From Aquificaceae bacterium (lineage in GTDB: Bacteria; Aquificota; Aquificia; Aquificales; Aquificaceae): a DNA stretch of 18,504 nt. Positions within the stretch are counted from its first letter, which is position 1. The number at the start of each line of letters is the position of its first letter. Under the pieces are notes generated by a model. It had not been told where the DNA came from, did not search any database, and saw only the letters and a program-made list of their open reading frames with translations. Made by a program: the position numbers and the translations under genes. The stretch spans positions 3,941 to 22,444 of the forward strand of contig JAXSMZ010000026.1 in NCBI GenBank assembly GCA_037924335.1, read 5' to 3'. Of this stretch, positions 57 through 18,504 are shown one piece after another.

Positions 57-90
57 GAAAGCAGCCCTCCTAATGTTTTTTTTATTAAAC

Positions 91-1869: not shown

Positions 1870-1876
1870 GAGGATA

Positions 1877-1882
1877 ATTATA
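1877..1882 (-). promoter_or_regulatory. putative -10 box (TATAAT) of a leaderless glmS transcript
   Basis: Minus strand reads TATAAT-TATCCTC-ATG (7-nt spacer), with no SD; the box overlaps the kdsC stop codon. Confidence 0.55.
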
Positions 1883-2402: not shown

Positions 2403-2417
2403 AAAGAATAAATAATA

Positions 2418-2555: not shown

Positions 2556-2585
2556 GTTTTACACCTCCTACGCTTGATACCTTTT

Positions 2586-2613
2586 ACTTTAAGACCTATA
2601 CCTTTAGAGTCAA
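2586..2613 (-). promoter_or_regulatory. putative sigma-70 promoter for the 45-aa ORF (and possibly kdsC)
   Basis: TTGACT (2613-2608) - 16 nt - TAAAGT (2591-2586), about 30 nt upstream of the ATG. Confidence 0.45.
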
Positions 2614-2624
2614 TATGCTTTTTA

Positions 2625-3281
2625 TCATATTAAGTAAACACTGGTATTCATCTGGGATATCTTAGATACTACTGCTTCTGATAGTCTCTCTTCTAAGGTC
2701 TTTGCTATCTCCTTCTCGTTCATTCTTCTCAGGGCATAGTTTGTGGTTATTATGGTACTCTTCATACTGTTGTACCTATGCGATATTATATGCGTGATGA
2801 TCTCCCTTTGCCAGTCGGAGAGCCTTTCGCTTCCAAGGTCGTCAAGCACAAGGAGGGGAACCTGCAAAAGCACATTCATCATCCTAGTGTATCTCTCGTT
2901 ATTCTCCATGATACTTTTTAACCTAAAAAACATATCCTTTGTGTCAAAGAAGATACCTCTCACCATCTTAGTTTTGTAAACAGCCTTTAGGATGGCAACC
3001 GCTAAATGAGTCTTTCCCATGTGAGGAGGTCCCAGGAGAGTTATTCCCCTTCCTTCCTTTAAATCAAAAGACATTGCATAGGAGAGACACACCTTTAAAG
3101 CCGACTTTTGAGATTGGGACACTGGAATGTAGTTTTCAAAGGTTGCGTCTTGAAATCTTGGTGGTATCCTTAGATACTTGGACATATCCCTTTCATCGAA
3201 CCTGCAAGAGCATAGAACCACAGTCTTACCTTTGTTTAAAAAACCGGTCCCACCACAGTGTGGGCATTCTTTTTTCTCCAT
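2625..3281 (-). CDS. dnaC: DnaC/IstB-family AAA+ ATPase, probably the replicative helicase loader
   Basis: N-terminal Zn finger CPHC...CSC, Walker A GPPHMGKT, Walker B LVLDDLG, sensor TTNY. Box VII VVSKI has Lys, as I recall for Aquifex DnaC. No adjacent transposase. Confidence 0.8.
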   Translation of the reverse strand: MEKKECPHCGGTGFLNKGKTVVLCSCRFDERDMSKYLRIPPRFQDATFENYIPVSQSQKSALKVCLSYAMSFDLKEGRGITLLGPPHMGKTHLAVAILKAVYKTKMVRGIFFDTKDMFFRLKSIMENNERYTRMMNVLLQVPLLVLDDLGSERLSDWQREIITHIISHRYNSMKSTIITTNYALRRMNEKEIAKTLEERLSEAVVSKISQMNTSVYLI

Positions 3282-3299
3282 AGTTTAAAATATAGGAAA
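3282..3299. promoter_or_regulatory. 18-bp divergent spacer with overlapping putative -10 boxes for dnaC and surE
   Basis: Plus strand TAAAAT (3286-3291) lies 8 nt before the surE ATG; minus strand TATATT (3294-3289) lies 7 nt before the dnaC ATG. Confidence 0.5.
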
Positions 3300-4046
3300 A
3301 TGCCCACTTTTTTGCTTACCAACGACGATGGCTACTTCTCAGAAGGTATAAGAGCTCTGAGGGATGCTTTAAAAAGCTTTGGAAGGGTTGTGTGCGTTGC
3401 TCCAGACAGGAATTTAAGCGGTGTTGGACATTCTTTGACCTTCAGTTCACCCTTGAGAGTGAGGCGTGTGGATGAGGATTTTTGGACAGTCATAGGGGGT
3501 ACACCGGCAGACTGTGTGCATTTTGGCTACTATCTAATATTGGACGGAAAAAAGCCAGACCTTATCTGCTCAGGGATAAACGAAGGTCCAAACTTGGGTG
3601 AGGATATAACCTACTCTGGGACTGTTTCTGGAGCTATGGAAGGGAGGATACTGGGCATTCCTTCAGTGGCTTTCTCTGCCTTTGGTAGGGATGAGATAGA
3701 CTTTTTGGAGCTGGCACGTATTGCAAAGGATGTTGTGGTAAAAGTGTTTGAAACTCCAATACCAGAAGATACATACCTGAATGTGAACATACCGAACTTA
3801 AAGAGGGAAGAGATAAAAGGTTTTGTGCTGACAAGGCAGGGAAAAAGAAGCTATAAAGAGAAATTCCTCAAGCTATCTGACCCTCATGGAAAACCCATCT
3901 ATTGGATAACTGCAGAGGAGTTTGGGTGGAGGTTGGAAGAGGGTACAGACTATTGGGCAGTGTACCATGGGTACGTTTCTATAACACCACTCCAGCTTGA
4001 CCTTACAAACTACAGAGCTCTCAAAGAGTTAGAAAAAATTTGGTAA
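3300..4046 (+). CDS. surE: 5'/3'-nucleotidase SurE
   Basis: LLTNDDG, GTPADCV, SGINEGPNLG, YSGTV and SITPL motifs. Start reset to ATG 3300 (MPTFLLTNDDG); 248 aa. Confidence 0.96.
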   Translation: MPTFLLTNDDGYFSEGIRALRDALKSFGRVVCVAPDRNLSGVGHSLTFSSPLRVRRVDEDFWTVIGGTPADCVHFGYYLILDGKKPDLICSGINEGPNLGEDITYSGTVSGAMEGRILGIPSVAFSAFGRDEIDFLELARIAKDVVVKVFETPIPEDTYLNVNIPNLKREEIKGFVLTRQGKRSYKEKFLKLSDPHGKPIYWITAEEFGWRLEEGTDYWAVYHGYVSITPLQLDLTNYRALKELEKIW

Positions 4047-4049
4047 AAT
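4041..4049 (+). promoter_or_regulatory. putative extended -10 box (TGGTAAAAT) of a leaderless purL transcript
   Basis: TGnTAAAAT followed by 7 nt and ATG 4057; no SD; overlaps the surE stop codon. Confidence 0.55.
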
Positions 4050-4056
4050 CATTGTG

Positions 4057-6294
4057 ATGACCGACTACACCCTTTATGGACTAAAAAAGGAAGAGTATGA
4101 GCAAATAGTTGAGAAGCTAGGAAGAGAGCCAAACCATGTGGAGCTTGGCATCTTTGGAGCCCTTTGGTCCGAACACTGTTCTTATAAATCCTCGAGGGTT
4201 TTGCTAAGAGATCTTCCCACTCAAGCACCTTGGGTCGTTCAGGGTCCCGGTGAGAACGCTGGAGTTTTAAAGATCGACGATGATATTTGGATAGCCTTCA
4301 AGGTAGAGAGCCATAATCATCCTTCCTTCATAGAGCCTGTAAACGGAGCTGCCACCGGCGTTGGTGGAATAATAAGGGATATACTCTCCATGGGTGCTCG
4401 CCCCATTGCCCTTGCCAATTCTCTCAGGTTTGGTCTTCCAATGGATGCACAGGTCAAGCACATTGTAAGGGGGGTTGTGAAAGGTATAAGCAAGTATGGA
4501 AATTCCATAGGCGTGCCAACAGTTTGTGGAGAGACCTTCTTCGAGGAGTGCTACAAGACAAACCCGTTGGTTAACGTCTTCTGTATTGGTATTCTGCCAG
4601 CTAGAAGGCTCTACAGAGCAAGAGCCCAAGAGGTTGGACAGGTTCTTGTGCTTGTTGGTTCTTCTACAGGTAGGGATGGTGTGCACGGTGCTGTTATGGC
4701 TTCTGGTGAGTTTGCAGAAGACAGAGAGTCCAAAAGGTCCAATGTGCAAGTTGGAGACCCTTACTTTGGCAAAAAGCTCATAGAAGCTATAATGGAGATG
4801 ATAGAAAGAGACCTTCTGTCAGGAATGCAAGACCTTGGAGCGGCTGGTCTATCGGGTGCAGTCGCTGAAGTGGCAAGCAAATCTAACATGGGAGTGGAGC
4901 TCTACCTTGAAAGAGTACCACTAAGGGAGGAGGGAATGCAAGCCTACGAAGTACTTCTCTCTGAAAGTCAGGAGAGGATGCTGCTCATAACCGATGAGGA
5001 AAAAGTTGATGAGATAAAAAAGATAGCCGACAAGAACCATCTTGAATGCAGCGTCGTTGGTAAATTGACTGATGATGGTCTTTTTAGAACCTTCTTTGGA
5101 GATAGGGTTGTTGCAAACCTGCCAGTAAGCCTTCTCACAAAAGAAGCACCCATATATGAAAGACCTAAAAGGGAGCCCGAGTACATAAAGCATCTGAGAG
5201 GTTTTAATCAGGAACTTTTGCCGCAGGTTGATATAAAGGAAGCCATCCGTAAGCTTTTAGACTCACCAAACGTAGCTTCCAAGGAGTGGGTTTACACCCA
5301 GTATGACCACCAGGTTGGTACAAACACAATACTAAAGCCTGGAGGGGATGCAGCAATCCTCAGGCTAAAGTGGGTTGTAAGGCCAGAGATAAGCAGTGAA
5401 AGGATGGTTGCCATAAGCTCGGAAGGGAACTCAAGAATGGTTTATTTGAACCCTTACGAAGGTGGAAAGTTTATAGTGGCAGAGGCTTGCAGGAACCTTG
5501 CATGCGTTGGAGCGAGACCCATTGGCATAACAGACTGTCTGAACTTTGGAAATCCTGAAAGGCCAGAGGTCATGTGGCAGATGGAACAGTCCATAAAGGG
5601 AATGGCCGAAGCTTGCAGCGAATTAGGTGTTCCAGTTGTAAGCGGAAATGTATCTTTGTACAACGAAACGGTAGAGAAAGAGGGAGCAAGAAACATATAC
5701 CCTACTCCTATAGTAGTGGCAGTTGGTACTGTAGAAAACAGAAAGTTCTTGGACCATAAGTTTAAAAAAGAAGGTAGCCTGGTCTTCCTCATAGGTGACC
5801 TCAGAAGAGCATCCATGTTGGATGGAAGCGAGTTTTTAAAGGTTGTTCATGGAAAGGTTGCCGGAGATGTACCCCCAGTTGACCTTGTAAAAGAGAGAGC
5901 CCTTTTACAGCTACTTATTGAGCTTATAGGAAAGGATATTATCCTATCTGCCCACGATGTGTCAACGGGTGGTCTTGCAATGGCTGTGCTTGAATGTCTC
6001 TTTGGCACACAGTTGGGTGCCGACATAAACCTGTACGTTGAAGAAAGGTTAGACCTCTTCCTTTTTTCAGAGAATCCAACGAGAGCGGTCATCAGCGTGG
6101 ATAAGGATAAAGCAGAAGCCTTCAAGGATATCACAGAAGCCTATGGGATAGATTGGATGCTTCTTGGAGAGGTAATAGAAGAAAGAAGGCTAAGCCTTGG
6201 ACTTTACGGTGAGAAGGTTCTTGAACTGAACCTTGAGGAGACGGAGAACCTATGGAAAGGCTCTTTGGAAAGAATGCTATCCTTTACACGTTAA
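4057..6294 (+). CDS. purL: phosphoribosylformylglycinamidine synthase subunit PurL (small type)
   Basis: WSEHCSYKSS, ESHNHPS, GAATGVGGIIRD, QDLGAAGL, SESQERM, DCLNFGNPE, SGNVSLYNET. ATG 4057 preferred over GTG 4054. Confidence 0.97.
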   Translation: MTDYTLYGLKKEEYEQIVEKLGREPNHVELGIFGALWSEHCSYKSSRVLLRDLPTQAPWVVQGPGENAGVLKIDDDIWIAFKVESHNHPSFIEPVNGAATGVGGIIRDILSMGARPIALANSLRFGLPMDAQVKHIVRGVVKGISKYGNSIGVPTVCGETFFEECYKTNPLVNVFCIGILPARRLYRARAQEVGQVLVLVGSSTGRDGVHGAVMASGEFAEDRESKRSNVQVGDPYFGKKLIEAIMEMIERDLLSGMQDLGAAGLSGAVAEVASKSNMGVELYLERVPLREEGMQAYEVLLSESQERMLLITDEEKVDEIKKIADKNHLECSVVGKLTDDGLFRTFFGDRVVANLPVSLLTKEAPIYERPKREPEYIKHLRGFNQELLPQVDIKEAIRKLLDSPNVASKEWVYTQYDHQVGTNTILKPGGDAAILRLKWVVRPEISSERMVAISSEGNSRMVYLNPYEGGKFIVAEACRNLACVGARPIGITDCLNFGNPERPEVMWQMEQSIKGMAEACSELGVPVVSGNVSLYNETVEKEGARNIYPTPIVVAVGTVENRKFLDHKFKKEGSLVFLIGDLRRASMLDGSEFLKVVHGKVAGDVPPVDLVKERALLQLLIELIGKDIILSAHDVSTGGLAMAVLECLFGTQLGADINLYVEERLDLFLFSENPTRAVISVDKDKAEAFKDITEAYGIDWMLLGEVIEERRLSLGLYGEKVLELNLEETENLWKGSLERMLSFTR

Positions 6295-6737
6295 CTTTTT
6301 TCACTGTGGTAGTTGTTGACCTGACAACGAAGAGGCTTGCAGAGATGTATCTATCTTACAAAGATATAACAATCTTGCCCTTTCTTCACTTGGTTCTTGT
6401 GTACAACAGAGGTGTAGCCTTTGGTTTTCTCTCCGATGCTCCAGACGTTGTTAGGGTACCCCTTGTACTTTTTACACCCATCGTAGCTTTCTTCATAACC
6501 TTTCTTTATTCTATAAGGAAAGCTGACCAAAAGACATCTGTTCTCATGGGTATGATAGGGGGTGGTGCCATAGGAAACTTCTACGATAGATTCTTATTTA
6601 GCTATGTCAGGGATTTTATATATCTTTCCTATGGGAAACTTTCTTGGCCTGCTTTTAACGTAGCAGACGCAGCCATAAGCATATCTATCTTCCTTCTCCT
6701 TGTAAACTCCATATTGGGCACATCTGGAAAAAGATGA
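6252..6737 (+). CDS. lspA: lipoprotein signal peptidase (SPase II)
   Basis: NRGVAFG, GAIGNFYDR, VRDFI and WPAFNVAD motifs with hydrophobic segments; overlaps the purL end by 43 nt. Confidence 0.94.
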   Translation: MERLFGKNAILYTLTFFTVVVVDLTTKRLAEMYLSYKDITILPFLHLVLVYNRGVAFGFLSDAPDVVRVPLVLFTPIVAFFITFLYSIRKADQKTSVLMGMIGGGAIGNFYDRFLFSYVRDFIYLSYGKLSWPAFNVADAAISISIFLLLVNSILGTSGKR

Positions 6738-6760
6738 TACCCGTCTTATATTTTATTAGT

Positions 6761-7045
6761 ATGATTAACGAAAGTTATACGGAAAAGACAGCCCATCTTG
6801 CAAGAATAAAGCTCAGGGATGATGAGATGGAGGTCTTCAAAAAACAGCTCCTTGATATACTGAGCTTTGTAGAAAAGCTCAAAGAGTTGGACACTTACGG
6901 AGTAGAACCCTTAACCTATGAACTGGGGCATACACCCCTTAGGGAGGATGAGGAAGGACAGTGTCTAAACCAAGAGGAGGCGCTTAAAAACGCACCACAA
7001 AAGGAGAATGGGTTCTTTGTAGTTCCAAGGGTTTTCGAAACTTAA
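6761..7045 (+). CDS. gatC: Asp-tRNA(Asn)/Glu-tRNA(Gln) amidotransferase subunit C
   Basis: AHLARI, LRED, ALKNAP and FFVVPRV motifs; start reset to ATG 6761 (94 aa). Confidence 0.92.
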   Translation: MINESYTEKTAHLARIKLRDDEMEVFKKQLLDILSFVEKLKELDTYGVEPLTYELGHTPLREDEEGQCLNQEEALKNAPQKENGFFVVPRVFET

Positions 7046-7057
7046 TGGAGGTTTTAT

Positions 7058-8062
7058 ATGCTACAGGAGGAAAAGAAGAGAGCTTTAGAAAGCGTACTTG
7101 CTGGAATTGAGAGGAAGTTTGGGAAAGGATCAATAATGCCTCTGAAAAATGCTGAAAAGGTAAAAGTTCAAGTTATACCTACCGGTTCTTTATCCTTAGA
7201 TATAGCCACTGGTATAGGGGGAATACCTAGGGGTAGGATCGTTGAGGTCTTTGGTCCCGAATCATCTGGAAAGACAACCTTGGCTCTTCATGTGATAGCC
7301 TCTGTTCAAAAGATGGGAGGAGTGGCTGTTTTTATTGATGCAGAGCATGCCCTTGACCCTAAATACGCAGAGAGGATAGGGGTTGATACGGAGCATCTTC
7401 TCATATCCCAGCCAGACTATGGAGAGCAAGCTCTTGAAATAGCCGAAAGCCTTATAACAAGTAATGCAGTAGACTTGATAGTCATAGACTCAGTTGCCGC
7501 TCTTGTTCCAAAGGATGAGCTTGAAGGTGAGATGGGAGAGTCTCACGTGGGTAAGCAGGCTAGACTTATGTCTCAGGCCCTCAGAAAGCTAAAGGGTATG
7601 GCTCATAAGACAAACACCACTATCATCTTTATAAACCAGCTGAGGGAAAAGATAGGTGTCCTGTTCGGTAATCCAGAGACTACACCAGGCGGAAGAGCCC
7701 TAAAATTCTTTGCAGATATGAGGCTAGATGTGAGAAGGGTGGGCGATGTAAAGGACAGCAGCGATAAGGTGGGCAACAGGGTAAGGGTAAAGGTTGTTAA
7801 GAACAAATTAGCGGCACCCTTTCAAGAGGCTGAGTTTGATGTCATATACGGTGAGGGCATATGCAAACTCTGCGACCTCATTGACCTTGCAGCTGAGATG
7901 AAGATAATAAACAGAAGCGGGTCGTGGTTCAGCTATGGAGAATTAAAGCTCGGTCAAGGTAGAGACCAGGCAAAGAAGTTTCTTTTAGAAAATCCGCAGA
8001 TAGCACAGGAGATAGAAAGTAAGGTCAGGGAGGTTTCAGGGCTTGCTTCAACTGATACTTAA
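7058..8062 (+). CDS. recA: recombinase RecA
   Basis: [51 protein letters not shown] upstream. Confidence 0.99.
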
Positions 8063-9137
8063 AAAGGCCATAGAGCTTGGTGCTTCCGACATTCACATTA
8101 AGGTGGGGAGCCAACCTGTAGTTAGAGTAAAGAAGAGGTTGGTAAAATTCACAGACTTTCCAGTGATAGAAGACAAGCTTATGGACCTCTTCGTGAAGGA
8201 AATTCTGGAAAGAAACAGAAAAAAGACGGTGGAGTTTGAAGAGTTTGGAGAGACGGACACATCTTACTCTCTTCCTGGTGTAGCACGTTTTAGAGTGAAC
8301 GTTTACAAACAGATGACGTCTGTAGGTGTAGCCTTCAGGGTTATACCTTTCCATGTACCTTCTTTTGAAAGTTTGAACCTACCGGAGATCATACGCAAAA
8401 CTGTTTTGGAAAATACCAAAGGGCTCATTATAGTAACTGGTCCAACAGGTTCTGGAAAATCAACTACCCTTGCAGCCATAATAAACATAATAAACAGGGC
8501 AAGGGACAACATTATTGTTACCATAGAGGACCCAATTGAGTACATTTTTAGGGATGAAAAGTCCTTCATAGCTCAAAGGGAAGTGGGTATAGATACTTCA
8601 TCCTTTGCAAGGGGATTAAGGGCAGCCCTAAGGGAAGACCCAGACGTTATAATGGTGGGAGAAGTCAGAGACCCGGAGACAGCGCAGATATGCCTTCAGG
8701 CAGCGGAAACGGGACATCTTGTTCTTTCTACCCTTCACACACTCGATGCCAAGGAATCCATAAATAGGTTCATAGGCATGTTTAACCTTGAGACAAGAGA
8801 ACAGATAAGAATACAGCTTGCAGAGACCCTCGTAGCCATATTCTCCCAAAGGCTACTACCGAAGGCAGATGGAAGCGGTGTTATTCCAGCCGTTGAGGTT
8901 TTCATAAACAGAGCAGCCATAAAGGAGTGTATACTTGATGTGAGCAAATTTGATGAAATACCCCTTTTACTGGAAAAAGGGAGGGCCACTTACGGTACCC
9001 AAACCTTTGACCAACACCTTGAAGAGCTCTACAGGAATGGGTTGATAGATTACAATACGGCCCTGCTGTACGCTACAAAGCCCGGAGACCTTGAGCTAAA
9101 GCTCAGGGGCATATCCTCAGGAGGAAGATTTTTCTGA
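8043..9137 (+). CDS. pilT: type IV pilus retraction ATPase, PilT/PilU family
   Basis: ASDIHI, Walker [29 protein letters not shown], His box [13 protein letters not shown] start with upstream GGAGG, overlapping the recA end. Confidence 0.9.
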
Positions 9138-9805
9138 TGAAGATAGCCATAGATGGCCCGTCTGGTAGTGGGAAAAGCACTGTGGCTAAGAGGATATCCA
9201 AGATTCTTTCCGTACCGTACCTTGATACAGGTTCCGTTTACAGAGCCTTTGCTTACATTGCAAAGATAAAAAACATTGATACATCAAACACTTGGGATGT
9301 GCTAAGGCTTTTTGAGAATAATATAGAAGTAAAGCTCTATTTATCAAGGACAGAAATCTTTTATATGGATAGAAAGTTAGAAAGGGAGCTGAAAGGTGAG
9401 GAAATAGGAAGGTACGCTTCGCTCATTGCCAGTGTGCCAGAGTTCCGTGAGAGAATGGTGGAGTTTTTCAGGAAGCTGGTGGGTGATGGGCAGGTAGTGG
9501 CTGAAGGTAGAGATGTTGGAACGCATATATTCCCAGATGCTCCTATAAAGCTCTTCATAACGGCAAGCTTGGAGGAGAGAGCCAGGAGGAGATATGCAGA
9601 GCTTTTAAGCATGGGAGAAGATGTGAGCTACGAGGCTGTACTCAACGCCCTTGAGGAAAGAGACAGGAGAGATAAAGAAAGACCAGTCTATCCGTTCAGA
9701 CCTGCGCCCGATGCCATTCTGATAGATACAACAGATATGAGTGCGGAGAGAGTAGTTGAAATAGCCTTAAGTGTGATAAAAAAAGCCCACACCTTTAATC
9801 GGTAA
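9137..9805 (+). CDS. cmk: cytidylate kinase
   Basis: IAIDGPSGSGKST, LDTGSVYR, EGRDVGT, ERARRR and RDRRD motifs; TGATG coupling with pilT. Confidence 0.96.
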   Translation: MKIAIDGPSGSGKSTVAKRISKILSVPYLDTGSVYRAFAYIAKIKNIDTSNTWDVLRLFENNIEVKLYLSRTEIFYMDRKLERELKGEEIGRYASLIASVPEFRERMVEFFRKLVGDGQVVAEGRDVGTHIFPDAPIKLFITASLEERARRRYAELLSMGEDVSYEAVLNALEERDRRDKERPVYPFRPAPDAILIDTTDMSAERVVEIALSVIKKAHTFNR

Positions 9806-10325
9806 ACTTTATCTTTAGCTCCCCCATCAAGAAGGCTTTGTGGTCCCTCAAGAGGGATCTAAGGAAAGATAGAGAGTCCTCCATAGCTATAAACCCTTTC
9901 CTCTTAAAAGCTTCCTCCATGTCCCTTAACCAATCCAACCTGTTTTTTATAAACCTGTACTGATTTATATAGCCTTTAACCTTGTCTTCTTCTAAGCAGA
10001 GGAGAGACAAAAACCTTAGCTCTACACCTATGTGGTCTGGCTGATAGCCTTCATCCAACCTAAACCCAGAAATCTCGTAGGACCTCAGGGTCTGCTCCGT
10101 ATTTACATCCCTATAGCTTCTTTCCAGAAGGGAGACCTCATCTAAAAGCTCAAGCTCCTCTTGAAGCTTAAAGCTATCTATATGTCTGAGCACATCAAAA
10201 GCATAGGGAGAGTATGCTGAATTAATTAGGTCATTGCACAGGGAATTAAGGTAATAACAATCCTTAGCTAAAAATAGCTCGGAAAAGGCATAGTAGAAGA
10301 AGGAAAGGCCTTTTAGCTCATCCAT
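9795..10325 (-). CDS. TorD/DmsD-family redox enzyme maturation chaperone
   Basis: QPDHIGVELRFL matches the family (E/Q)PxDH motif; located in a molybdoenzyme cluster. Start reset to ATG 10325 (MDELKGL), 2 nt after the upstream stop; 176 aa. Confidence 0.85.
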   Translation of the reverse strand: MDELKGLSFFYYAFSELFLAKDCYYLNSLCNDLINSAYSPYAFDVLRHIDSFKLQEELELLDEVSLLERSYRDVNTEQTLRSYEISGFRLDEGYQPDHIGVELRFLSLLCLEEDKVKGYINQYRFIKNRLDWLRDMEEAFKRKGFIAMEDSLSFLRSLLRDHKAFLMGELKIKFTD

Positions 10326-10327
10326 CT

Positions 10328-11557
10328 TCAAACCCTGTTTACAGAGTAATCTAAGGCTATATCTCCAAAGTATTCGCAGAGGGAGGGGTGTGTGTAGGGC
10401 ATGCGGAAAAGCTGATCGTCCCAAAGGGCATTGTTCATGCTAAAGGATATCAAATTTAGAGCTTCGCTAACTTCCTCCCCTAGGATGGAAAAGTAAGAAA
10501 GCCTGCCTTCATTGTCCACATACATGCATATCATTCCCTTCCTTCCGTTTACAAAGCTCTTTGTGTTTGCGTTCAAAGTCTTTGTGATCTTTCTATGCTT
10601 TGTTTCATAAGAACCAACAAATCCAAGTTCAAGGGCTGAGCATATTACTATGGGCACAAGCCCCGGCCTGTAGGGGCTATAAAAGTCCATCATGCTCTGG
10701 CAGGCAGACTTTGCCTTTGCTATGGCATGGCTTGCACCCATGGGCCTTGTTATGTCCCCCACAGCATAGACACTTTTTATGTTGCTTCTCATACACTCAT
10801 CAACTTTAACATAACCCTCTTGCTCAAACTCAAGGAATGGGAAGGCCTCTTTACATAAATTTGGAATCCTACCAGTTGCCCTTATGTGAAGGTTCGCATC
10901 TATCATGCTGTCCACAAACTTTACACCGCAGAGTTCCAACTCTTCCTCCAGCTTTTCCACCATATCTTCATCCACGGGATAGTCCTTCAAAAGCCTTCCC
11001 TCAACTTTTAGATAAACATCAAAACCAAAGGTAGAAAGAATAAAAGAAAGCTCGCAGGCGCTTGCACCTGAGCCTTCTATAAGGATCCTACCCCTTGGAA
11101 GTATTTTTCCTGTGAGTACATCCTCAACGCTTGGACCTTCCTCCTTAGGCTTTGAACCGCAAGCGAGCACTACATGCTCCCCCCTGAGATATAGGTTTTT
11201 ACCTACCTTTACCGTATTCTCATCTACAAGCACACCCAGGCCTTTTATTAGGTCTATACCTTCCCTCTTTAACAAAAACTCCGCATTGGACCTTATCTGT
11301 TTTATCTTTGTCCTTACGTACTTTAGAGCTTTTTCAAAGTCTACCTTTGTCTCAAAACCCCTCCTCCTTAGAGAGTGCATCTCTTTTGCTATACGGTAAA
11401 GCCCCTCCTTTGGTATGCAACCCCTGTTTAGGCATGTTCCACCAAGCTCTTTAGCTTCCAAAAGGGCAACCTTTAAACCACCCTTTGCAAGCATAAGAGC
11501 TGAAGTAAACCCCCCTGGACCGCTTCCTATAACTATTGCGTCGTAGAGTTTTATCAT
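10328..11557 (-). CDS. class I pyridine nucleotide-disulfide oxidoreductase (dihydrolipoamide dehydrogenase-like, short)
   Basis: FAD motif GSGPGG, redox disulfide GGTCLNRGCIPK, VYAVGD, C-terminal HPSLCE; degenerate second Rossmann motif GSGASACE; 409 aa. Confidence 0.85.
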   Translation of the reverse strand: MIKLYDAIVIGSGPGGFTSALMLAKGGLKVALLEAKELGGTCLNRGCIPKEGLYRIAKEMHSLRRRGFETKVDFEKALKYVRTKIKQIRSNAEFLLKREGIDLIKGLGVLVDENTVKVGKNLYLRGEHVVLACGSKPKEEGPSVEDVLTGKILPRGRILIEGSGASACELSFILSTFGFDVYLKVEGRLLKDYPVDEDMVEKLEEELELCGVKFVDSMIDANLHIRATGRIPNLCKEAFPFLEFEQEGYVKVDECMRSNIKSVYAVGDITRPMGASHAIAKAKSACQSMMDFYSPYRPGLVPIVICSALELGFVGSYETKHRKITKTLNANTKSFVNGRKGMICMYVDNEGRLSYFSILGEEVSEALNLISFSMNNALWDDQLFRMPYTHPSLCEYFGDIALDYSVNRV

Positions 11558-12042
11558 CCCTTCTTCTCCAGCTCAAAAAGACAAAACTCCTTGCCTTGTA
11601 CTATACATTCTATCTCCCTGCATTCCCATTTTAGACTCGTTAGCTCTTCAAGGACGCCTGCAAGGGCACCCTGCAAAGGTATGCATACGGGCTTTTTACT
11701 CTCTTGCCCTTCTGCAAAAACAGAGCCTTTGATATATATTTTTATCCTGTCTTCTTGGTTTTCCCAATGGTCAACAACCCCCACACCAGCCTCGCCGAGA
11801 AAGGTTCTAAGATAAAGCTCTATATCTTCAATAGAAGGCGTTTGATTCCCTATAAGTTCTTTCAGTATCTGCCCAGCTATCCTTCCAGCCTTTCTACCCG
11901 ACATGTTTAGTATGCCTCCTATACCAAAGCCAGAGAGCTTTACTATGCTTGAGTAAAACTCTTGCACCGGCTTCTTTGGCACTATAAAGCCTTCTTGCTT
12001 CAGAAAAATCCTAATCTTTGACACCGCTCCAAGCTCGTCCAT
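11554..12042 (-). CDS. stand-alone V4R (4-vinyl reductase) domain protein
   Basis: C-terminal VCIPLQGALAG...REIECIVQGKEFCLF with C-x22-E-x2-C-x7-C; AGGAGG SD at 12054-12049; ATGA overlap with the next gene. Confidence 0.85.
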   Translation of the reverse strand: MDELGAVSKIRIFLKQEGFIVPKKPVQEFYSSIVKLSGFGIGGILNMSGRKAGRIAGQILKELIGNQTPSIEDIELYLRTFLGEAGVGVVDHWENQEDRIKIYIKGSVFAEGQESKKPVCIPLQGALAGVLEELTSLKWECREIECIVQGKEFCLFELEKKG

Positions 12043-12060
12043 TTTTTACCTCCTAATCAA

Positions 12061-12154
12061 GGGTAAAGGTACCCTCCGTATAAAGCATCAAAGTCTTCCA
12101 CCCTTTAACTTCCGGGGAAGCATAGGCATTACGAAGGGCTCAATCCTTTTACCC
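12061..12154 (-). other. predicted long nested RNA stem-loop upstream of the V4R gene
   Basis: On the minus-strand RNA, GGGUAAAAGG pairs with CCUUUACCC (one bulge). CCCUUCGUA pairs with UACGGAGGG (9 bp, one G-U), and an inner CUUCC pairs with GGAAG. Pairing was done by eye. Confidence 0.55.
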
Positions 12155-12210
12155 ATCCTAAACTCCGCACAAAAGATAAGAAGGGGGAAACCCCTTCTAA
12201 GCCACTTCAT
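12088..12210 (-). CDS. possible 40-aa leader peptide (MKWLRRGFPLLIFCAEFRMGKRIEPFVMPMLPRKLKGGRL)
   Basis: ATG preceded by TAAAAT-N7, the same geometry as purL/glmS; no SD and no recognisable family; may be fortuitous. Confidence 0.25.
   Translation of the reverse strand: MKWLRRGFPLLIFCAEFRMGKRIEPFVMPMLPRKLKGGRL
12171..12198 (-). terminator. intrinsic terminator-like hairpin after the molybdoenzyme gene
   Basis: AGAAGGGG-TTTC-CCCCTTCT perfect 8-bp stem followed by TATCTTTT, 22 nt downstream of the stop codon. Confidence 0.7.
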
Positions 12211-12220
12211 AGATATAATT

Positions 12221-15200
12221 TTATGCCTTTATAACCTTTACGTTTCCACTGTAGAAGGCAACTCCACCGCCAAACCACTCCATCTGAGGATAGACTACAC
12301 CCGTTGGGAGGGTTGTCTTAGGATACATGGCGATGTAGGGAGCTCCCTTATCTCTCTTAGGGTCTGAAAGCAATCTATTCCCGTCCACTATTTTCATAGT
12401 TCCATGCAGGACTTTTGTTCTCCACTCTGGGAAATCCTTAAACCTTGCAAGGACTAGCAATGCCTTTTCTGGGTTCTGTATCTCGAGGGGTACTTTGTAA
12501 ACACCAGAATGGCACCAGTGTCCAAAGGTGGTAGATATGGCTACCGTTCCTTGCCTTATCCTGTTGGTCACATATGCCTTTATTTTGAACTCTACCTTCT
12601 TACCCGCTATATCCACAGCCCAGTCTTCATAACCGGGAGCTAGCACCTTTACATAGTCTCCTTGTTTAATGCCAAGCTTTTGGGCATCCACAGGGTTTAT
12701 CCAAAGGGTATTTTCAGGCTCTGATTCAAGAGCCCATATGTAGTTGATAGTTCTGGATTGGGTGTGCAAAGTGGGCTTGTAGGTTATTAGCTTGAGTGGA
12801 TACTCCGACTCCACCTTGTCTGGGTCAAAGCCTTGATATTGACCTGCCTCTCTCAGGGATACATACCTTGGATAACCGGGCATGAACTTGCCAGTGATAG
12901 GGTTGTGCCTTGTGGCTAAGCCCTCAAAGTAGAACCTTACCATGTTTTCCTTGTTCAGCGGAAACTTGTAAAGATCTCCTTTAAAGTGGTCCTCATAGCT
13001 CAGGAAGAAGCCACCCCTTGAGAGCAAAAAGGCTACCTTGGGCCACTCTTCTGGAGATACAACGTTCTTATACTTGGCAATTGGGTAGTTTTTCTCCACA
13101 AACTCCACATCCTCCTTCTTAGGCTCTATCTTATAGCCCTTTGATTCAAGGTCGTGCACCAGGTTGGCTATCTGCTTGAGGTGGAAATCTTCTGCCCTCA
13201 TGAGGGAATAACTTTTGCCCTCGTTTGGACCCATGCCCTTTATGGCGTCCTTCCCCCATAGGGGTGAGCCGAGCTTCCTTCCTATATCTATAAAGAAGGT
13301 TTCCTGCTGCATAGGTCTTCCGTCCGGTGTTTTGTCCGTTAGAGGTTCAATTATTGGGCACCTTATAGCGTTGTAGAAGAAGTAGTGGTAAAGACCATGG
13401 ATTCCAGTAAGGCCCTCTGCGTAAGTTACATCAGGGACTATGTAATCTGCAAAGTAGGAAGTATCATCTATAACGGTGGTTATATGTACCCACAGTCCTA
13501 CCTTCTTTGTATCCAAGAGTGTATCCTTGTAATGTAGCTGGGCTGGATATGTAAAGAGCGGGTCTGACATATATTGGATAACCGTATATGGAATTCCTGC
13601 CTTATTTTGGTCATAAGGATAGTTATGAACTACAGATGGGAAGAAGCCAGTTATGTGATACTTTGGTCCTATGAACTTAAACCATGGCATCTTTGCAGGG
13701 TAAGGATTTTTGCCCTCCATCTTGGCCTTGTAGTAGAAGGCTGTCTCTTCATAATTCTTCTGAGTTCTATGAAGTTTAAGACCCCAAGGCTTTCTTCCAC
13801 CGCCCAGGTCATACCTTCCCTTGTTTACCCCACCAGTTCCCACCTGCCATATCATACCGCCCTTATGTCCTAAGTTGCCAATGAGCATGTTTATGGAGTC
13901 TATTAGGAACTGGGTCATAGAGCCGTTTATGTGCATAACAGGGCCTCTGTAAGAGACTACCGCTGCCTTTTTGCCGTAAGAGGTTAACTCGTCCGCCGTA
14001 TCTATAACATCCTTTGGATTCACACCAGCCATCTTACACCAGTTTCCTATTGTTTCTGTAAAGACAAAGTCCTTTAGAATTTGTAAAGAGCTTGTAACGT
14101 ACACAGTAGAACCATCCTTTAACTTTAGCTCCAACCCCTTTGTTTTCTTAGGATACTTGCCAGCCCTCTTAGGATCAACATCCTCTATTTCATAAAGCTC
14201 ATTAGGAACTTCCTTTGCCCCTTCATACTCATCCATAAGTATGTACGCAGACTTTGATTGGGTGTTTGCCTTTAGGCTACCTGTTTCCTTGTCTACCACC
14301 ACATACTCGCTCTCTGAACCAAGGCCAAGGTCGCTTGCCCTCAGAAGCTTTCTATAGTGTGGGCTGTCCTTTGGACCTACAACTACCAAGTGGCTCGCAT
14401 TGGAAAAGACCACTTCCCCATCTTCCTTTGCAGCCTCAAGGTTTGGATTTTCCAAGAACCTTCTGTCAAAGGATTGCTTTTCAAAGATCCTTCTTATTAT
14501 GGCGCAGGCTATTGCCGGGTCTTCTCCAGGCTTTGGCATTATATGTCTGTGGGAATAAGCTACTACACCGTTATGTGCCCTTGGGTCTATCCAAACTACC
14601 TTTAGGTCTCCATTCCCTCTTCTGTAATGAAGTAGGGTCCAGGTACCAACCGGTGGGTTAAAGGACTCTGCTATCTGAGCCCCCCAAGCCACTATGTAGT
14701 GGGCAGACTTTAGGTCTGGTCCCACATGGGGCCTATCAAAGGCGAAGATCTGGCCAGCCCACTTAGGCCACTGACAGACATCTGCGTGCCCCAAGAAGTT
14801 ATTAGAGCCTATGGTTCCGTAGATCATCCTCTCTATAAATTCACCCCTACCCTCCGTAACCCTACCACCCAACGCGCAGAAAAAGTTAGACTTTGGTCCT
14901 AAGGCTGGCATCTCTGGGTCTATGAGCTTTTTCTTTATCTCCTCTGGTAGCTTTTGGGCTTCTTCTTTTGGTAGCCATAGCTTGTAGATATTCTCCTCAA
15001 GAAACTTCTTCCAATCTTCTACAGGCTTTCCGTGGGTTATCTCATTGGCCCATCTGTTTAAAAAGTCCTTGCTTACATGGTTAAGGACTGCATCTATCAC
15101 TTCTTCTTCCGATACATAAAGGTCGTAATACATCTTAAGACCTGGAAGTTTCTCTCCCGTCTCCTCTATGATGCTACCTTCTACGACCTCTTTTATAAGC

Positions 15201-15661
15201 TGTTCCCAGCTTATGGGCTTAAACTTTCCTTCACCGCGCTTACCAGCTCTCTTTAGAGGTGTCACTATCCTATATGGGTCATAGGCATAATGGGCTATGG
15301 ACTGACCCTTAAGGCACATCTTTCCAGAGTGCTTTAAGCTCTCTTCAAGGGGTGTATCCATGGGAAGGGGTTCCCAATAGTTGTTAGCTGTGCAGTAAGG
15401 GTTACCATCCACCTTATAGACCATACCATCGTAAACCCTTGCCCTTATACCACACCTTCCGTTACAGGCAAGGCATAGGCTATGGACCACTTTGAACCTT
15501 TCCGCATCCTGCATGTCCAAAGGTGCGGCGTTGGCATAGGGTATGAGCTTAAAGGGCCCCTTCACTATATCCTTTAATGCTGAGCTTCCAAAGGCAAGGA
15601 AGCCCACTCCAGTACCTGCCAAGCCTACATTTCTTAAAAAGTCTCTTCTCGTTGTAGCCAT
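12221..15661 (-). CDS. periplasmic Mo/W-bisPGD oxidoreductase catalytic subunit, TtrA/SrdA-like
   Basis: Tat motif TRRDFL with ANA cleavage site, [4Fe-4S] motif CLACNGRC...CLKG, PLKRAGKRGEGKF, ISWEQLIKEVVEG, likely Cys ligand GHADVC, ADYIVPD, C-terminal LITYK...INPVDA. Start reset to ATG 15661 (AGGAGG 9 nt upstream); 1146 aa. Family is secure, substrate is not. Confidence 0.88.
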   Translation of the reverse strand: MATTRRDFLRNVGLAGTGVGFLAFGSSALKDIVKGPFKLIPYANAAPLDMQDAERFKVVHSLCLACNGRCGIRARVYDGMVYKVDGNPYCTANNYWEPLPMDTPLEESLKHSGKMCLKGQSIAHYAYDPYRIVTPLKRAGKRGEGKFKPISWEQLIKEVVEGSIIEETGEKLPGLKMYYDLYVSEEEVIDAVLNHVSKDFLNRWANEITHGKPVEDWKKFLEENIYKLWLPKEEAQKLPEEIKKKLIDPEMPALGPKSNFFCALGGRVTEGRGEFIERMIYGTIGSNNFLGHADVCQWPKWAGQIFAFDRPHVGPDLKSAHYIVAWGAQIAESFNPPVGTWTLLHYRRGNGDLKVVWIDPRAHNGVVAYSHRHIMPKPGEDPAIACAIIRRIFEKQSFDRRFLENPNLEAAKEDGEVVFSNASHLVVVGPKDSPHYRKLLRASDLGLGSESEYVVVDKETGSLKANTQSKSAYILMDEYEGAKEVPNELYEIEDVDPKRAGKYPKKTKGLELKLKDGSTVYVTSSLQILKDFVFTETIGNWCKMAGVNPKDVIDTADELTSYGKKAAVVSYRGPVMHINGSMTQFLIDSINMLIGNLGHKGGMIWQVGTGGVNKGRYDLGGGRKPWGLKLHRTQKNYEETAFYYKAKMEGKNPYPAKMPWFKFIGPKYHITGFFPSVVHNYPYDQNKAGIPYTVIQYMSDPLFTYPAQLHYKDTLLDTKKVGLWVHITTVIDDTSYFADYIVPDVTYAEGLTGIHGLYHYFFYNAIRCPIIEPLTDKTPDGRPMQQETFFIDIGRKLGSPLWGKDAIKGMGPNEGKSYSLMRAEDFHLKQIANLVHDLESKGYKIEPKKEDVEFVEKNYPIAKYKNVVSPEEWPKVAFLLSRGGFFLSYEDHFKGDLYKFPLNKENMVRFYFEGLATRHNPITGKFMPGYPRYVSLREAGQYQGFDPDKVESEYPLKLITYKPTLHTQSRTINYIWALESEPENTLWINPVDAQKLGIKQGDYVKVLAPGYEDWAVDIAGKKVEFKIKAYVTNRIRQGTVAISTTFGHWCHSGVYKVPLEIQNPEKALLVLARFKDFPEWRTKVLHGTMKIVDGNRLLSDPKRDKGAPYIAMYPKTTLPTGVVYPQMEWFGGGVAFYSGNVKVIKA

Positions 15662-15662
15662 G

Positions 15663-16787
15663 TTATACAACCTCCTCTTTATGGGTTGAACTCTTCCATC
15701 CTGCTATTGAAACAAAGGCTAAGAAAAGGAAAAATACCAAGAAATAAAGGGCTATTACCTCGCTTATTCCCTCCCTTCCAATTAGCTTTATGTGGGGATA
15801 AACTATTCCCCTATGCCCTTTATCTATCATCTGTGCTGGTATTACCATAGTCCATCTTGCGGCGTATATCGCTATTAAAGATACCACGCTTAAGATCGTT
15901 ATACCGCCCAAGCTTCTGTTCATAGAGCTAAAACCGCCTATCAAGACAAAAAGAAGCCCTATGACTTCAACCAAGTAGAAGATCAGGTTTGTCTTTATTG
16001 CCATGGCTATCAGGGGCCACTCTGCGGCGTTCCAATACCACTCGGATACATACTCAATAAAGAGTACAAAGAGGTCAAAGCCTGCAAAACTTGCCATAAC
16101 AATAGTTGGTACTTTTAGAATTTGAGTGTCCACCTTCTCACCGAGGATAGATTGTCCCACTATGTAAAGGAGCATAGTGGCACCTATACCAGAAACCACT
16201 GCGGATATTAAGAAGGTGAGAAGAAGTATGGAAGTTCCCCACAGAGGCATGGCATGCATAGCACTCATTAAGAAACCGACATAGGCGTGGAAGAACATGG
16301 CAACGGGTATGCTTACCGCAGCCCAGAGTTTTACCTTTTTATCATCCTCTTCTGGGTTTACCTCCTTTGCGCCAAAGGTAAGTATACCCGCTATGGTACC
16401 AAAAAGACCTTCTCCTTTTGCCCTTTCAATAAAATCTCTTCTAAACAGGAAATAGCTCTTTAGGAACATAACTGCGAGTAGGATGATCCACAGTATGAAG
16501 AAGAGAATTATGGGAGAGGATAGGTTTGCGTAGAAGGGCACCTTAAAAGCCCTTATAGGCTGAGTTAGGTCAAACATAGGGGCTAAGGGTGCAACAAGCA
16601 TGAGGGCTATGGCCAAGAAGTGTCCTACCCTTTCTAGCTGCTCAAGCTTTTTAAGTCCCAAAAGGTAAACAAGGGCCGTTATTACCGTTGAACCTGCCAC
16701 GATACCAGTGAAGTAAGGATAGGTTACTATCAAAACAGTCCACTCCACTATATGGTTTGGTAAAGTCGGTCCATGGGTCTCTATCAT
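15663..16787 (-). CDS. NrfD/PsrC/TtrC-family membrane anchor (quinone/quinol-interacting subunit)
   Basis: Many TM segments; W-x3-IVTYPYFTG, DLTQPIRA, SSP, HAYVGFL, PLW motifs; AGGAGG SD. Confidence 0.92.
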   Translation of the reverse strand: MIETHGPTLPNHIVEWTVLIVTYPYFTGIVAGSTVITALVYLLGLKKLEQLERVGHFLAIALMLVAPLAPMFDLTQPIRAFKVPFYANLSSPIILFFILWIILLAVMFLKSYFLFRRDFIERAKGEGLFGTIAGILTFGAKEVNPEEDDKKVKLWAAVSIPVAMFFHAYVGFLMSAMHAMPLWGTSILLLTFLISAVVSGIGATMLLYIVGQSILGEKVDTQILKVPTIVMASFAGFDLFVLFIEYVSEWYWNAAEWPLIAMAIKTNLIFYLVEVIGLLFVLIGGFSSMNRSLGGITILSVVSLIAIYAARWTMVIPAQMIDKGHRGIVYPHIKLIGREGISEVIALYFLVFFLFLAFVSIAGWKSSTHKEEVV

Positions 16788-16798
16788 GGCTTACCTCC

Positions 16799-17638
16799 TT
16801 ATCTTAGTTCCCTAAACTTGTTATGTTGCATCCTGACGTTAAAGGTATAGACCTTGCCGTCGGAGGGGTCCGTCCAGATGGCTGGTGGATGTTGGTTTTT
16901 TGTGGAGCTACCAGTTCCTACATAAATACCCTCTATGGCTTCAAGACCTATGTAAAGTACCCTTGGCTTTGTCCCCTCTTCTGGCTTTAGCACCTGCACG
17001 CCGTTCTTCTTTATAAGGTCCCATATGGGGTCGTTGACATCTGCTAAGTCTCCAAAGTTCCTTGCCTTTGTTGGGCATACATCCACACAGGCAGGCTTCA
17101 GGCCGTTGCGTGTCCTGTGGTCGCACCAGGTACACTTGTTCATTACCATCATTATGGGGTCTATGTACCTTACACCATAGGGGCATGCCTGCTCGCAAAG
17201 TCTACAGCCTATGCACCTTTCGTATCTTTGAAGCACCAAGCCATCCCCTTCATCTCTGTAAGTGGCATGCACCGGGCAGACCTTTACGCAGGGCGGATTT
17301 TCACAGTGGTTGCAGAGCTTGGGAACGTTGATAACCTTTACCCTTGTCTCTCCTGTGCTTGGGTCTGTGTAACCCACTTCCCATTTTTCTACCCATGTGT
17401 TAAACACTCCAAGGGGTGTGTTCCTCTCCGCTTTGCAGGCTGCTACGCAGGCATCACAACCTATGCACTTTCTAACATCCACAACAAAGATAAACCTGCG
17501 TTTGCCCTTCTGCTCTGGAAAGGTTCTTTCCGCCCTTGCAGTTTCAAAGATGGCACCACAGGTGGCGACAGTCCCAACTGCAAGAGCCTTCAAAAAACCT
17601 CTCCGAGAGGTTTGTTCTTCTTGAACAGGTTCACTCAT
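16799..17638 (-). CDS. 4x[4Fe-4S] electron-transfer subunit, TtrB/NrfC/DmsB-like, with its own Tat signal
   Basis: SRRGFLK; CIGCDACVAAC, CNHCENPPCVKVC, CIGCRLCEQAC, KCTWC...PACVDVC; AGGAGGT SD. Confidence 0.94.
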   Translation of the reverse strand: MSEPVQEEQTSRRGFLKALAVGTVATCGAIFETARAERTFPEQKGKRRFIFVVDVRKCIGCDACVAACKAERNTPLGVFNTWVEKWEVGYTDPSTGETRVKVINVPKLCNHCENPPCVKVCPVHATYRDEGDGLVLQRYERCIGCRLCEQACPYGVRYIDPIMMVMNKCTWCDHRTRNGLKPACVDVCPTKARNFGDLADVNDPIWDLIKKNGVQVLKPEEGTKPRVLYIGLEAIEGIYVGTGSSTKNQHPPAIWTDPSDGKVYTFNVRMQHNKFRELR

Positions 17639-17674
17639 AATGCCACCTCCTAGGTTTGTTTCATCTCAACCTTG

Positions 17675-17690
17675 AGCAAAAATCGTGCCA
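17675..17690 (-). promoter_or_regulatory. sigma-54 (-24/-12) promoter of the ttrBCA-like operon
   Basis: Minus strand TGGCACGATTTTTGCT matches TGGCAC-N5-TTGC(A/T); 36 nt upstream of the start codon. Confidence 0.9.
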
Positions 17691-17750
17691 ATAGAATACC
17701 AATTGAAAAGCCTTAGAAATCAAAGATGTTAAAGGGGAACCTTTCAACAT

Positions 17751-17827
17751 TGCTTATTTTTTGAGCATTAAGTAATAAAAAATTGAACAGTGTTCAGAAT
17801 TTGAACTCTATGCTCATATTATGAGCA
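17751..17827. promoter_or_regulatory. array of 17-bp palindromes, putative enhancer (UAS) sites for a sigma-54 activator
   Basis: TGCTTA-TTTTT-TGAGCA (17751-17767), half site ending TGAACA (17773-17789), TGTTCA-GAATT-TGAACT (17791-17807), and the perfect palindrome TGCTCA-TATTA-TGAGCA (17811-17827). Confidence 0.75.
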
Positions 17828-17850
17828 GTTCTTCTCTTTCTTTCCAGCTT

Positions 17851-17863
17851 AAAACCCTTGATA
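17851..17863 (-). promoter_or_regulatory. IHF-like DNA-bending site
   Basis: Minus strand TATCAA-GGGT-TTT versus consensus WATCAR-N4-TTR (one mismatch), located between the UAS array and the rightward sigma-54 promoter. Confidence 0.35.
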
Positions 17864-17880
17864 GACCTTGTTTCCATGGA

Positions 17881-17896
17881 TGGCATGTTCTTTGCA
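17881..17896 (+). promoter_or_regulatory. sigma-54 (-24/-12) promoter of the porin-like gene
   Basis: TGGCATGTTCTTTGCA has correct GG-N10-GC spacing and lies 38 nt upstream of ATG 17935. Confidence 0.82.
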
Positions 17897-17934
17897 AAGA
17901 AAGAAGCTGAAGAAAAACTTACGGAGGTGAAAGC

Positions 17935-18504
17935 ATGAAGAAGGTTGTGGGAGCTTTTTTACTATCTGCAGTTCTTGCGGCACCAAGTTATGCCATTAAG
18001 CTAAGAGATGCAGACATTGACTTTGGCATCCAGTACAGGATCATGTACAACAACTCTAACATTCAATCCAACAACCAGTATGACTTCTTCAGACAAAGGC
18101 TTAGGCTCAACTTTGACGTTAAAACTGAAAGTGGTGTTGGTGGATTCTTCCAGATTGAGTACAGGGGCGGATGGGGTGGCTCATCCCCAGCAGCGAGCGA
18201 CCCAAGAGCTACCTATGCTGTAAACGCCTTTAACAGACTTCAGGCAAGAGGTATAAGGTATGGCTATCTTTACTTCCCAGTAGGTCCTGGTACTGTCTTG
18301 GCTGGTATACTTCCAGCGAACGATCAAGTTGACCAGATGCTCTTCTCCGCAGACTGGGACCTTAACGTAGGCGGTATAGCTTACGCTGGTAAGGTAGGAA
18401 ACTTTGACTACAGAGCTGCCTATGTAAGGCTTGTTGAAGGTGTATTCTATAGGAACACAGCAGTTAAGGATAAAGACCAGCACTTTTTGGTCTTAGACCT
18501 AAAC
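17935..18504 (+). CDS. secreted, probable outer-membrane beta-barrel/porin protein (5' part, runs off the window)
   Basis: Hand-translated; absent from the ORF track. GGAGGTG SD, Sec signal MKKVVGAFLLSAVLAAPSYA, then amphipathic aromatic-rich strands (IDFGIQYRIMY, RQRLRLNFDV, GGFFQIEY, RYGYLYF); 190 open codons to the edge. Confidence 0.85.
   Translation, partial: MKKVVGAFLLSAVLAAPSYAIKLRDADIDFGIQYRIMYNNSNIQSNNQYDFFRQRLRLNFDVKTESGVGGFFQIEYRGGWGGSSPAASDPRATYAVNAFNRLQARGIRYGYLYFPVGPGTVLAGILPANDQVDQMLFSADWDLNVGGIAYAGKVGNFDYRAAYVRLVEGVFYRNTAVKDKDQHFLVLDLN

Follow-up and report, generated by a model that had tools for sequence, protein, structure and literature searches.

Tetrathionate reductases (TtrBCA) of Salmonella and E. 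coli are encoded in the order iron-sulfur (FeS) subunit (B), membrane anchor (C) and catalytic subunit (A), carry twin-arginine (Tat) signals on A and B, possess a nine-helix anchor and are regulated by TtrSR. SrdBCA of Bacillus selenatarsenatis belongs to the same family and has the same gene order, according to the accessible part of its description (PMC7331816). Moreover, the accessible parts of several papers describe Ttr-like arsenate reductases (PMC7331816; PMC11462812; PMC12949373; PMC2500031), of which those of Anaeromyxobacter sp. PSR-1, Pyrobaculum aerophilum (PAE1265) and Melioribacter roseus (MROS_1076) combine the B-C-A order with two Tat signals, a Cys ligand and a Gly-Arg pair. 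In Melioribacter, ttr lies beside arrTSR, encoding a phosphonate-binding-protein sensor, a kinase and a regulator, and is induced by arsenate, as stated in the available text (PMC5492636). AioXSR of Pseudorhizobium banfieldiae NT-26, ArxXSR and ArrXSR of Chrysiogenes arsenatis each comprise a sensor with seven pocket residues, a kinase and an AAA+ regulator, in combination with a sigma-54 promoter; the aioXSR genes tabulated in the accessible part of one paper come solely from Alpha- and Betaproteobacteria (PMC5908839). Here we analyze a stretch of 18,504 nucleotides (the window) from an Aquificaceae bacterium (assembly GCA_037924335.1, contig JAXSMZ010000026.1, positions 3,941 to 22,444), which carries a B-C-A operon divergent from a porin gene. 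With moderate confidence, we propose from comparative evidence that B-C-A encodes a Ttr-type arsenate reductase within an arsenic regulon shared with aioBA, which encode arsenite oxidase.

Contig C26, whose terminal part forms the window, belongs to a genome of 1.53 Mb, labeled G000; other genomes are labeled G with a number, loci L, contigs of G000 C and sequencing runs X with a number. All six minus-strand genes named in the initial annotation were found in the order given there, FeS subunit, NrfD anchor, Mo/W catalytic subunit, V4R protein, flavoprotein and TorD chaperone. The first three encode the enzyme:

16799..17638, minus strand: FeS subunit B, TtrB-like, four clusters (four Cys groups) and a Tat signal; best NCBIfam match TtrB, under the cut-off.
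15663..16787, minus strand: NrfD/TtrC-like membrane anchor C (PF03916) of about nine helices, counted as nine hydrophobic peaks by hydropathy.
12221..15670 (likely start 15661), minus strand: catalytic subunit A of the Ttr family, a Mo/W-bis-pyranopterin guanine dinucleotide enzyme with Tat signal, FS0 cysteines and metal ligand Cys299.
14861..14866, minus strand: Gly269-Arg270 of A, matching, in a HMMER alignment to 6CZ7, the Gly-Arg pair that binds arsenate in ArrA (Arg165); the residue offset was checked against ArrA numbers that are in part our assumption.

Assignment to the Ttr/Srd/archaeal arsenate reductase family thus holds on gene order, on the twin-arginine motifs of A and B (visible in both proteins, with profile scores slightly under the cut-off), on the Cys ligand and on the nine-peak anchor, which we take from family knowledge to carry the predicted quinol site.

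Is the enzyme then a tetrathionate reductase? The best NCBIfam match of A is TtrA at 394 bits, far below the cut-off of 1750, and A is only 26% identical to TtrA of an E. coli plasmid. Its closest relatives are 77-87% identical and all from Aquificaceae; seven relatives lie at 76-90% and one at 61%, and the other 112 listed among 238 matches reach at most 35%. Cys299 aligns with the metal-ligand Cys of both ArrA and TtrA. The Gly-Arg pair is present in all clade members aligned and missing from TtrA, which agrees with the accessible text of a study finding it in all arsenic enzymes of the group and not in true Ttr (PMC12949373). In a tree of 46 of the 73 aligned rows (LG+G4, with support from the Shimodaira-Hasegawa-like approximate likelihood ratio test, SH-aLRT, only) the enzyme clade is fully supported and has a thermophile/archaeal group as sister (SH-aLRT 91), and joining the clade to the TtrA group is rejected (approximately unbiased test, p-AU 0.0009). 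Cut-off, clade and Gly-Arg pair argue together that A is not a bona fide TtrA, as had been suspected beforehand.

The genes pointing to arsenic lie just beyond the window, on contig C8, and had escaped the first inspection:

G000:C8 600-1931, strand opposite to the porin, after the porin end: response regulator R, sigma-54 type, AAA+.
G000:C8 1903-3585, strand opposite to the porin: histidine kinase S.
G000:C8 3566-4405, strand opposite to the porin: AioX-family periplasmic sensor X (PF12974).

Linkage to the window is given by one contig of 5,384 bases from run X2, which spans window positions 17845-18504 and C8 positions 1-4570 with 154 bases between window end and C8 and with 17 and 19 differences; furthermore, G006 has the same porin-R-S-X layout on one contig. 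In runs X1 and X5, high-depth contigs lead from the end of the porin straight into DNA past X and skip the regulators (L019:600-4672), a junction that probably belongs to a more abundant relative. The best solved relatives of X are ArrX (E 9e-37) and AioX (6e-31), followed by PhnD (5e-17), and X groups with AioX/ArxX, apart from PhnD. It keeps all seven residues (Tyr88, Cys106, Tyr131, Ser161, Ser163, His192, Asp210) named for the AioX pocket in the accessible part of PMC5908839, and the same holds for each of the 20 aligned X proteins from Aquificota; the pocket Cys is missing in PhnD and in the sensor domain of TtrS. Since X is in addition encoded beside a kinase and a response regulator and not beside an ABC permease, it is likely a sensor of the AioX/ArxX/ArrX type, predicted to bind an arsenic oxyanion. 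The sensing function proposed for the V4R protein within the operon would accordingly fall to a protein encoded outside the window.

Among 178 Aquificota genomes searched, X was found in 24, aioA in 23 and the enzyme clade in 12, with two further decayed copies. Every one of the 24 genomes with X carries aioA or a gene of the enzyme (in G006 no more than a piece of B where a contig ends); conversely, X occurs in 19 of the 23 aioA genomes and in nine of the 12 enzyme genomes, a tenth having S and R up to the contig end. X adjoins aioBA in 10 genomes and Ttr-like genes in eight, the remaining six being broken, elsewhere or cut, and in L138 X-S-R, aio-like genes and B-C-A form a single island. 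This sharing of a sensor with aioBA, together with the presence of the Gly-Arg motif in Arx as well, would also fit an enzyme running in reverse as a second, quinone-linked arsenite oxidase like Arx. We consider this very unlikely, as B-C-A order and tree place the enzyme in the Ttr family, away from ArxA; ubiquinone is, moreover, the quinone ascribed to Arx and menaquinone that ascribed to Arr, and Aquificaceae use naphthoquinones.

How might the two enzyme systems be brought under one control? The 296-base gap between B and the porin gene contains four elements:

17675..17690, minus strand: sigma-54 -24/-12 site for B-C-A (motif match).
17881..17896, plus strand: sigma-54 -24/-12 site for the porin (motif match).
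17751..17789, no strand: box pair nearest the B promoter, predicted AioR-type activator sites (17751-17767, score 11.0; 17773-17789, score 4.1).
17791..17827, no strand: box pair nearest the porin promoter, predicted AioR-type activator sites (scores 14.7 and 19.1).

Both sigma-54 sites point outward. Two -24/-12 matches are within chance, 23 of 200 shuffles giving at least two, but the site upstream of B is kept in 7/7 orthologous loci examined, in line with the claim of sigma-54 control, unlike in Salmonella. The boxes, not remarked on before, are paired 17-base palindromes (matrix consensus TGGTCA-AAATT-TGACCA), found 70-115 bases upstream of aioB promoters. The matrix was trained on six sites from aioB promoters of three genomes other than G000. 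It scores eight of eight held-out aioB promoters at 22-38 and 10/10 other sigma-54 promoters at 6.1 or less. Ranking 101 sigma-54-like sites in G000 places the porin/ttr region first (33.8), before aioB on C37 (29.7, a score that is not independent because this promoter hardly differs from one used for training), an operon of aio-like genes on C9 (14.8) and the next site (5.1). Moreover, the aio-trained box is found in ttr promoters without a porin (L007, 21.8; L014, 21.3; L012, 15.5; L011, 15.4). Two other Ttr-family operons, L017 and L018, have no sigma-54 site, and one isolated box-like match lies inside an upstream gene. R may thus bind the boxes at the ttr, porin and aio promoters.

How, then, does this locus compare with the described systems? 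It shares with the PSR-1, PAE1265 and MROS_1076 enzymes all the features listed above and with Melioribacter also the adjacent sensor, kinase and regulator. Unlike these, it would fall into a separate deep clade, its regulator is of the sigma-54 type and orthologous to one beside aioBA in the same family, its box is common with aio promoters, and porin, V4R and flavoprotein are optional additions. Its regulators resemble AioXSR, ArxXSR and ArrXSR in sensor pocket, kinase, AAA+ regulator and sigma-54 promoter; X is less than 30% identical to NT-26 AioX, though, and adjoins a Ttr-family enzyme here, and the box sequence is a prediction derived in this work. From TtrBCA-TtrSR, whose gene order, Tat signals and anchor it shares, the locus differs in the low identity, the Gly-Arg pair, the separate clade and the regulator, the TtrS sensor domain lacking the AioX pocket. 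To SrdBCA it can be likened by description, not by sequence, and nothing in the locus points to selenium.

Taken as an arsenate reductase, the direction of catalysis follows from family placement and from quinone chemistry as we presume it to be. An arsenic oxyanion would enter via the porin and bind X, which would activate kinase S; phosphorylated R could then bind the box pairs, which lie some 70-100 bp upstream, and open the sigma-54 promoters. TorD would mature A, and C would oxidize quinol and pass electrons via B to the Mo/W site of a respiratory enzyme facing the periplasm. As(V) would be reduced to As(III) when oxygen is short, and AioBA would catalyze the reverse when oxygen is present.

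Several observations weigh against this assignment, beginning with the dependent G000 aioB score. The function of the Gly-Arg pair is called untested by its own authors in the accessible text (PMC12949373), and as the pair occurs in 57/73 Ttr-family rows aligned it is a weak positive marker, which excludes TtrA better than it proves arsenic. Other ArrA active-site residues differ in A in the alignment to 6CZ7, and the tree was built without the characterized Pyrobaculum, Anaeromyxobacter, Melioribacter and SrdA enzymes. Three ttr promoters (L008, L015 and G071) fail the paired box score (-3.5 to 1.5); two of them, inspected, contain single sites 24 bp apart, a post-hoc explanation. The strongest box pair of the window is on the porin side, the B-side pair totaling about 15. 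The AioX pocket cannot tell arsenite from arsenate. There was no X match in the enzyme-bearing genomes G091 and G092, and L141 (74%) has neither X-S-R nor a sigma-54 site within 10 kb; many of the 178 genomes are incomplete and kin genomes are not independent.

It could also be imagined that the substrate is thioarsenate, likewise under arsenic regulation, the As-S bond being cleaved reductively to arsenite and sulfide, which would feed arsenite oxidase and sulfide oxidation. The regulon evidence speaks for this as it does for arsenate, the Ttr scaffold is that of a sulfur-bond reductase family, co-regulation with aioBA fits a two-step pathway, and the clade is deep, at no more than 35% identity to listed relatives outside it. 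Thioarsenate constitutes 40-60% of the arsenic in an alkaline sulfidic spring, where the available text attributes its conversion to As(III) to Thermocrinis mats (PMC4850476). We nevertheless regard this substrate as unlikely, since no aioA match was found in seven of the 12 enzyme genomes, one of them complete, most aio-bearing Aquificota lack the enzyme, and in the growth reported on monothioarsenate this compound acts as the donor. Should this less likely case apply, Aquificaceae would possess a thioarsenate-cleaving molybdoenzyme, with one arsenic sensor and sigma-54 activator for porin, Ttr-family enzyme, arsenite oxidase and a divergent Aio-like enzyme on a path from thioarsenate via arsenite to arsenate, and the enzyme would be a candidate for the conversion of thioarsenate to arsenite in hot-spring outflows.

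Returning to the window, the remaining features are:

12179..12198, minus strand: terminator-like hairpin with U-rich tail directly 3' of the catalytic gene (folding; window z-score -1.43).
12056..12210, minus strand: broken remnant of a gene of about 90 codons, intact in relatives (locus comparison).
11554..12042, minus strand: stand-alone V4R protein (PF02830), four invariant Cys and a Glu.
10328..11557, minus strand: shortened flavoprotein of the Lpd/glutathione-reductase family (TIGR01350, 192 bits against a cut-off of 409).
9795..10325, minus strand: TorD/NarJ-family chaperone (PF02613), overlapping the end of cmk; overlap pattern and homology place the start at 10325 and not at 10424.
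17935..18504, plus strand: porin, 5' part, outer-membrane beta-barrel, truncated by the contig end and continuing at G000:C8:3-551.

The initial annotation regarded the V4R protein and the flavoprotein as sensing and relay parts of the system because they lie between enzyme and dedicated chaperone. To assess this, 11 genome loci with intact enzyme were compared, 10 of them with the downstream side assembled (the fragmented G092 was left out). X-S-R is adjacent in 8/11 and TorD is present in 9/11, in agreement with a dedicated chaperone, but V4R is found in only four of the ten assessable loci (one frameshifted), the flavoprotein in three and the porin in three. All three co-occur in a single one, G000; thus TorD proved a frequent neighbor and the complete combination did not. 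In the complete genome G071 the locus has enzyme, TorD and regulators, and V4R, flavoprotein and porin were not matched genome-wide. Eight metagenome loci contain V4R once, the flavoprotein never and regulator genes in five cases. Since the remaining intact loci have TorD in inverted orientation or upstream, the positional argument is only local. In addition, a hairpin with U-rich tail follows A in 8/8 loci folded, individually weak in three, the window included (sigma-70 and terminator scans being at chance level overall), so that transcription of V4R, flavoprotein and TorD would need read-through. An internal promoter before V4R was considered and rejected, the window having no -24/-12 match there and a best box score of 3.2.

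V4R and flavoprotein are therefore not supported as fixed module parts, and what stands of the proposed membership is membership in the regulon: orthologues have their own box-bearing sigma-54 promoters elsewhere, the flavoprotein after aioBA in G096 (21.7) and V4R in G005 (23.0), and since the same box stands at their promoters in other genomes V4R, flavoprotein and porin are likely regulon members. G005, which has V4R and porin alone, both with box-bearing promoters, gave no X match, and the V4R-flavoprotein pair of G015 has no arsenic context. The four invariant Cys and one Glu of V4R form a possible metal site; V4R as operon sensor was rejected, since most loci lack it and a dedicated X-S-R set lies next to the operon. 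The flavoprotein keeps CxxxxC, GxGxxA and HPSxxE and conforms to the motifs of class I pyridine nucleotide-disulfide reductases, the second GxGxx(G/A) motif being degraded in 2/12 rows, both distant paralogues. A function as pyruvate-dehydrogenase E3 (dihydrolipoamide dehydrogenase) was dismissed on the TIGR01350 score and the wrong operon context; G000 has two other Lpd-family genes, one within a 2-oxoacid dehydrogenase operon. From context, V4R and flavoprotein would be optional cytoplasmic regulon members whose most likely task is to maintain thiol redox balance during arsenic stress; the enzyme would not depend on them for its electrons. The porin, whose family has no Pfam match, follows aioA in seven genomes. 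Its complete 97% orthologue models as a beta-barrel matching AlgE/Occ porins (mean predicted local distance difference test score, pLDDT, 56 from an alignment; 32.5 from the single sequence). As the initial annotation had it, the divergent porin shares the control region; its function, too, is suggested by context.

Paralogues of V4R (about 50%) and flavoprotein (about 44%) are the last genes of a sigma-54 operon with sulfite reductase, TauE, CysG and ATP sulfurylase. In L011 and L012, and likewise in the decayed loci of G073 and G074, this operon borders on the locus, which could be taken to mean that the enzyme reduces a sulfur or selenium oxyanion (tetrathionate, polysulfide or selenate), lies by chance beside arsenic regulators and is served by V4R and flavoprotein relaying sulfur redox signals, as the best NCBIfam matches TtrA and TtrB and the widespread Gly-Arg pair would permit. 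We hold this to be quite improbable: the aio-trained box stands in porin-less ttr promoters and is absent from seven sulfate-operon promoters, the TtrA grouping is rejected, V4R and flavoprotein are missing from most loci, and no ATP-sulfurylase match was found in G000. The original list of sulfur, selenium or arsenic oxyanions is thus narrowed to arsenic, its sulfur and selenium part being disfavored.

The sulfate-assimilation operon, with sigma-54 site, sulfite reductase, TauE, CysG, ATP sulfurylase and a terminal Lpd-like gene (plus V4R in most), was seen in L075-L079, CysG being absent among the open reading frames listed for L079; the sulfite reductase of L012 is a fusion protein that also contains ThiS and PAPS-reductase domains. 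G000 encodes two further V4R paralogues (C39:6880-7311, 55%; C3:36212-36652, 30%). Decayed loci (L071, L072, L111, L117 and L126) were found in G073 and G074 (V4R-flavoprotein-TorD with scraps of A and porin), in G083, where X-S-R stands beside a TorD remnant, and in G005, with its V4R and porin alone. The small gene broken between A and V4R, like the hairpin overlooked at first, is conserved 3' of the catalytic gene in relatives (L008:6312-6984, L010:5281-5989, L011:9924-10205), often followed by a gene for a membrane-tailed CxxCH cytochrome c, which is absent in the window; two proteins of these kinds were scanned and gave no Pfam match. After the porin, aioBA islands contain two further small genes (L048:4838-5663, L049:16655-17474), one with weak Rossmann-fold matches and one without a Pfam match. 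Window positions 91-9805 hold what we take by likeness to be the housekeeping genes glmS, kdsC, a dnaC-like gene, surE, purL, lspA, gatC, recA, pilT and cmk.

G000 carries further arsenic and redox genes. A Rieske and AioA-like pair (C9:37250-40014, plus strand; L044), its AioA-like protein 27% identical to canonical AioA and below the TIGR02693 cut-off, has twin-arginine motifs on both proteins and a sigma-54 site with the same box upstream; orthologues occur in G093 and G089 and form part of the island L138. Canonical aioBA is split over contig ends (C37:8033-8303 and C22:2-598) and 98% identical to the copy of G017, which is flanked by insertion-sequence-like genes. Additionally, there are an arsR-arsB-like pair and an arsC accompanied by a permease and a small redox protein (C4:36037-37631 and C2:109931-111601), as well as a gene resembling formate dehydrogenase-N whose single in-frame TGA probably encodes selenocysteine (C8:32441-35476).

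Ttr-like arsenate reductases as a kind are known from Melioribacter and Anaeromyxobacter; the deep enzyme clade and the shared regulon appear new relative to the papers searched, as a literature search, with subscription journals largely outside its coverage, returned no account of an Aquificaceae AioXSR regulon, of the box or of the V4R-flavoprotein pair. The accessible part of one metagenome study reports no arrAB in Aquificaceae (PMC3665934), and rows 1-26 of 53 in Dataset S8 of another place one Thermocrinis unit, which may or may not be of the same clade, under arsenate reduction (PMC11362583). Many hot springs rich in arsenic are dominated by Aquificaceae, a family regarded as arsenite oxidizers. 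The box flags an arsenic-linked porin family and the V4R-flavoprotein pair as regulon members, and, if the enzyme is indeed an arsenate reductase, one sensor over reductase and oxidase would enable the same cell to convert arsenic in either direction with changing oxygen.

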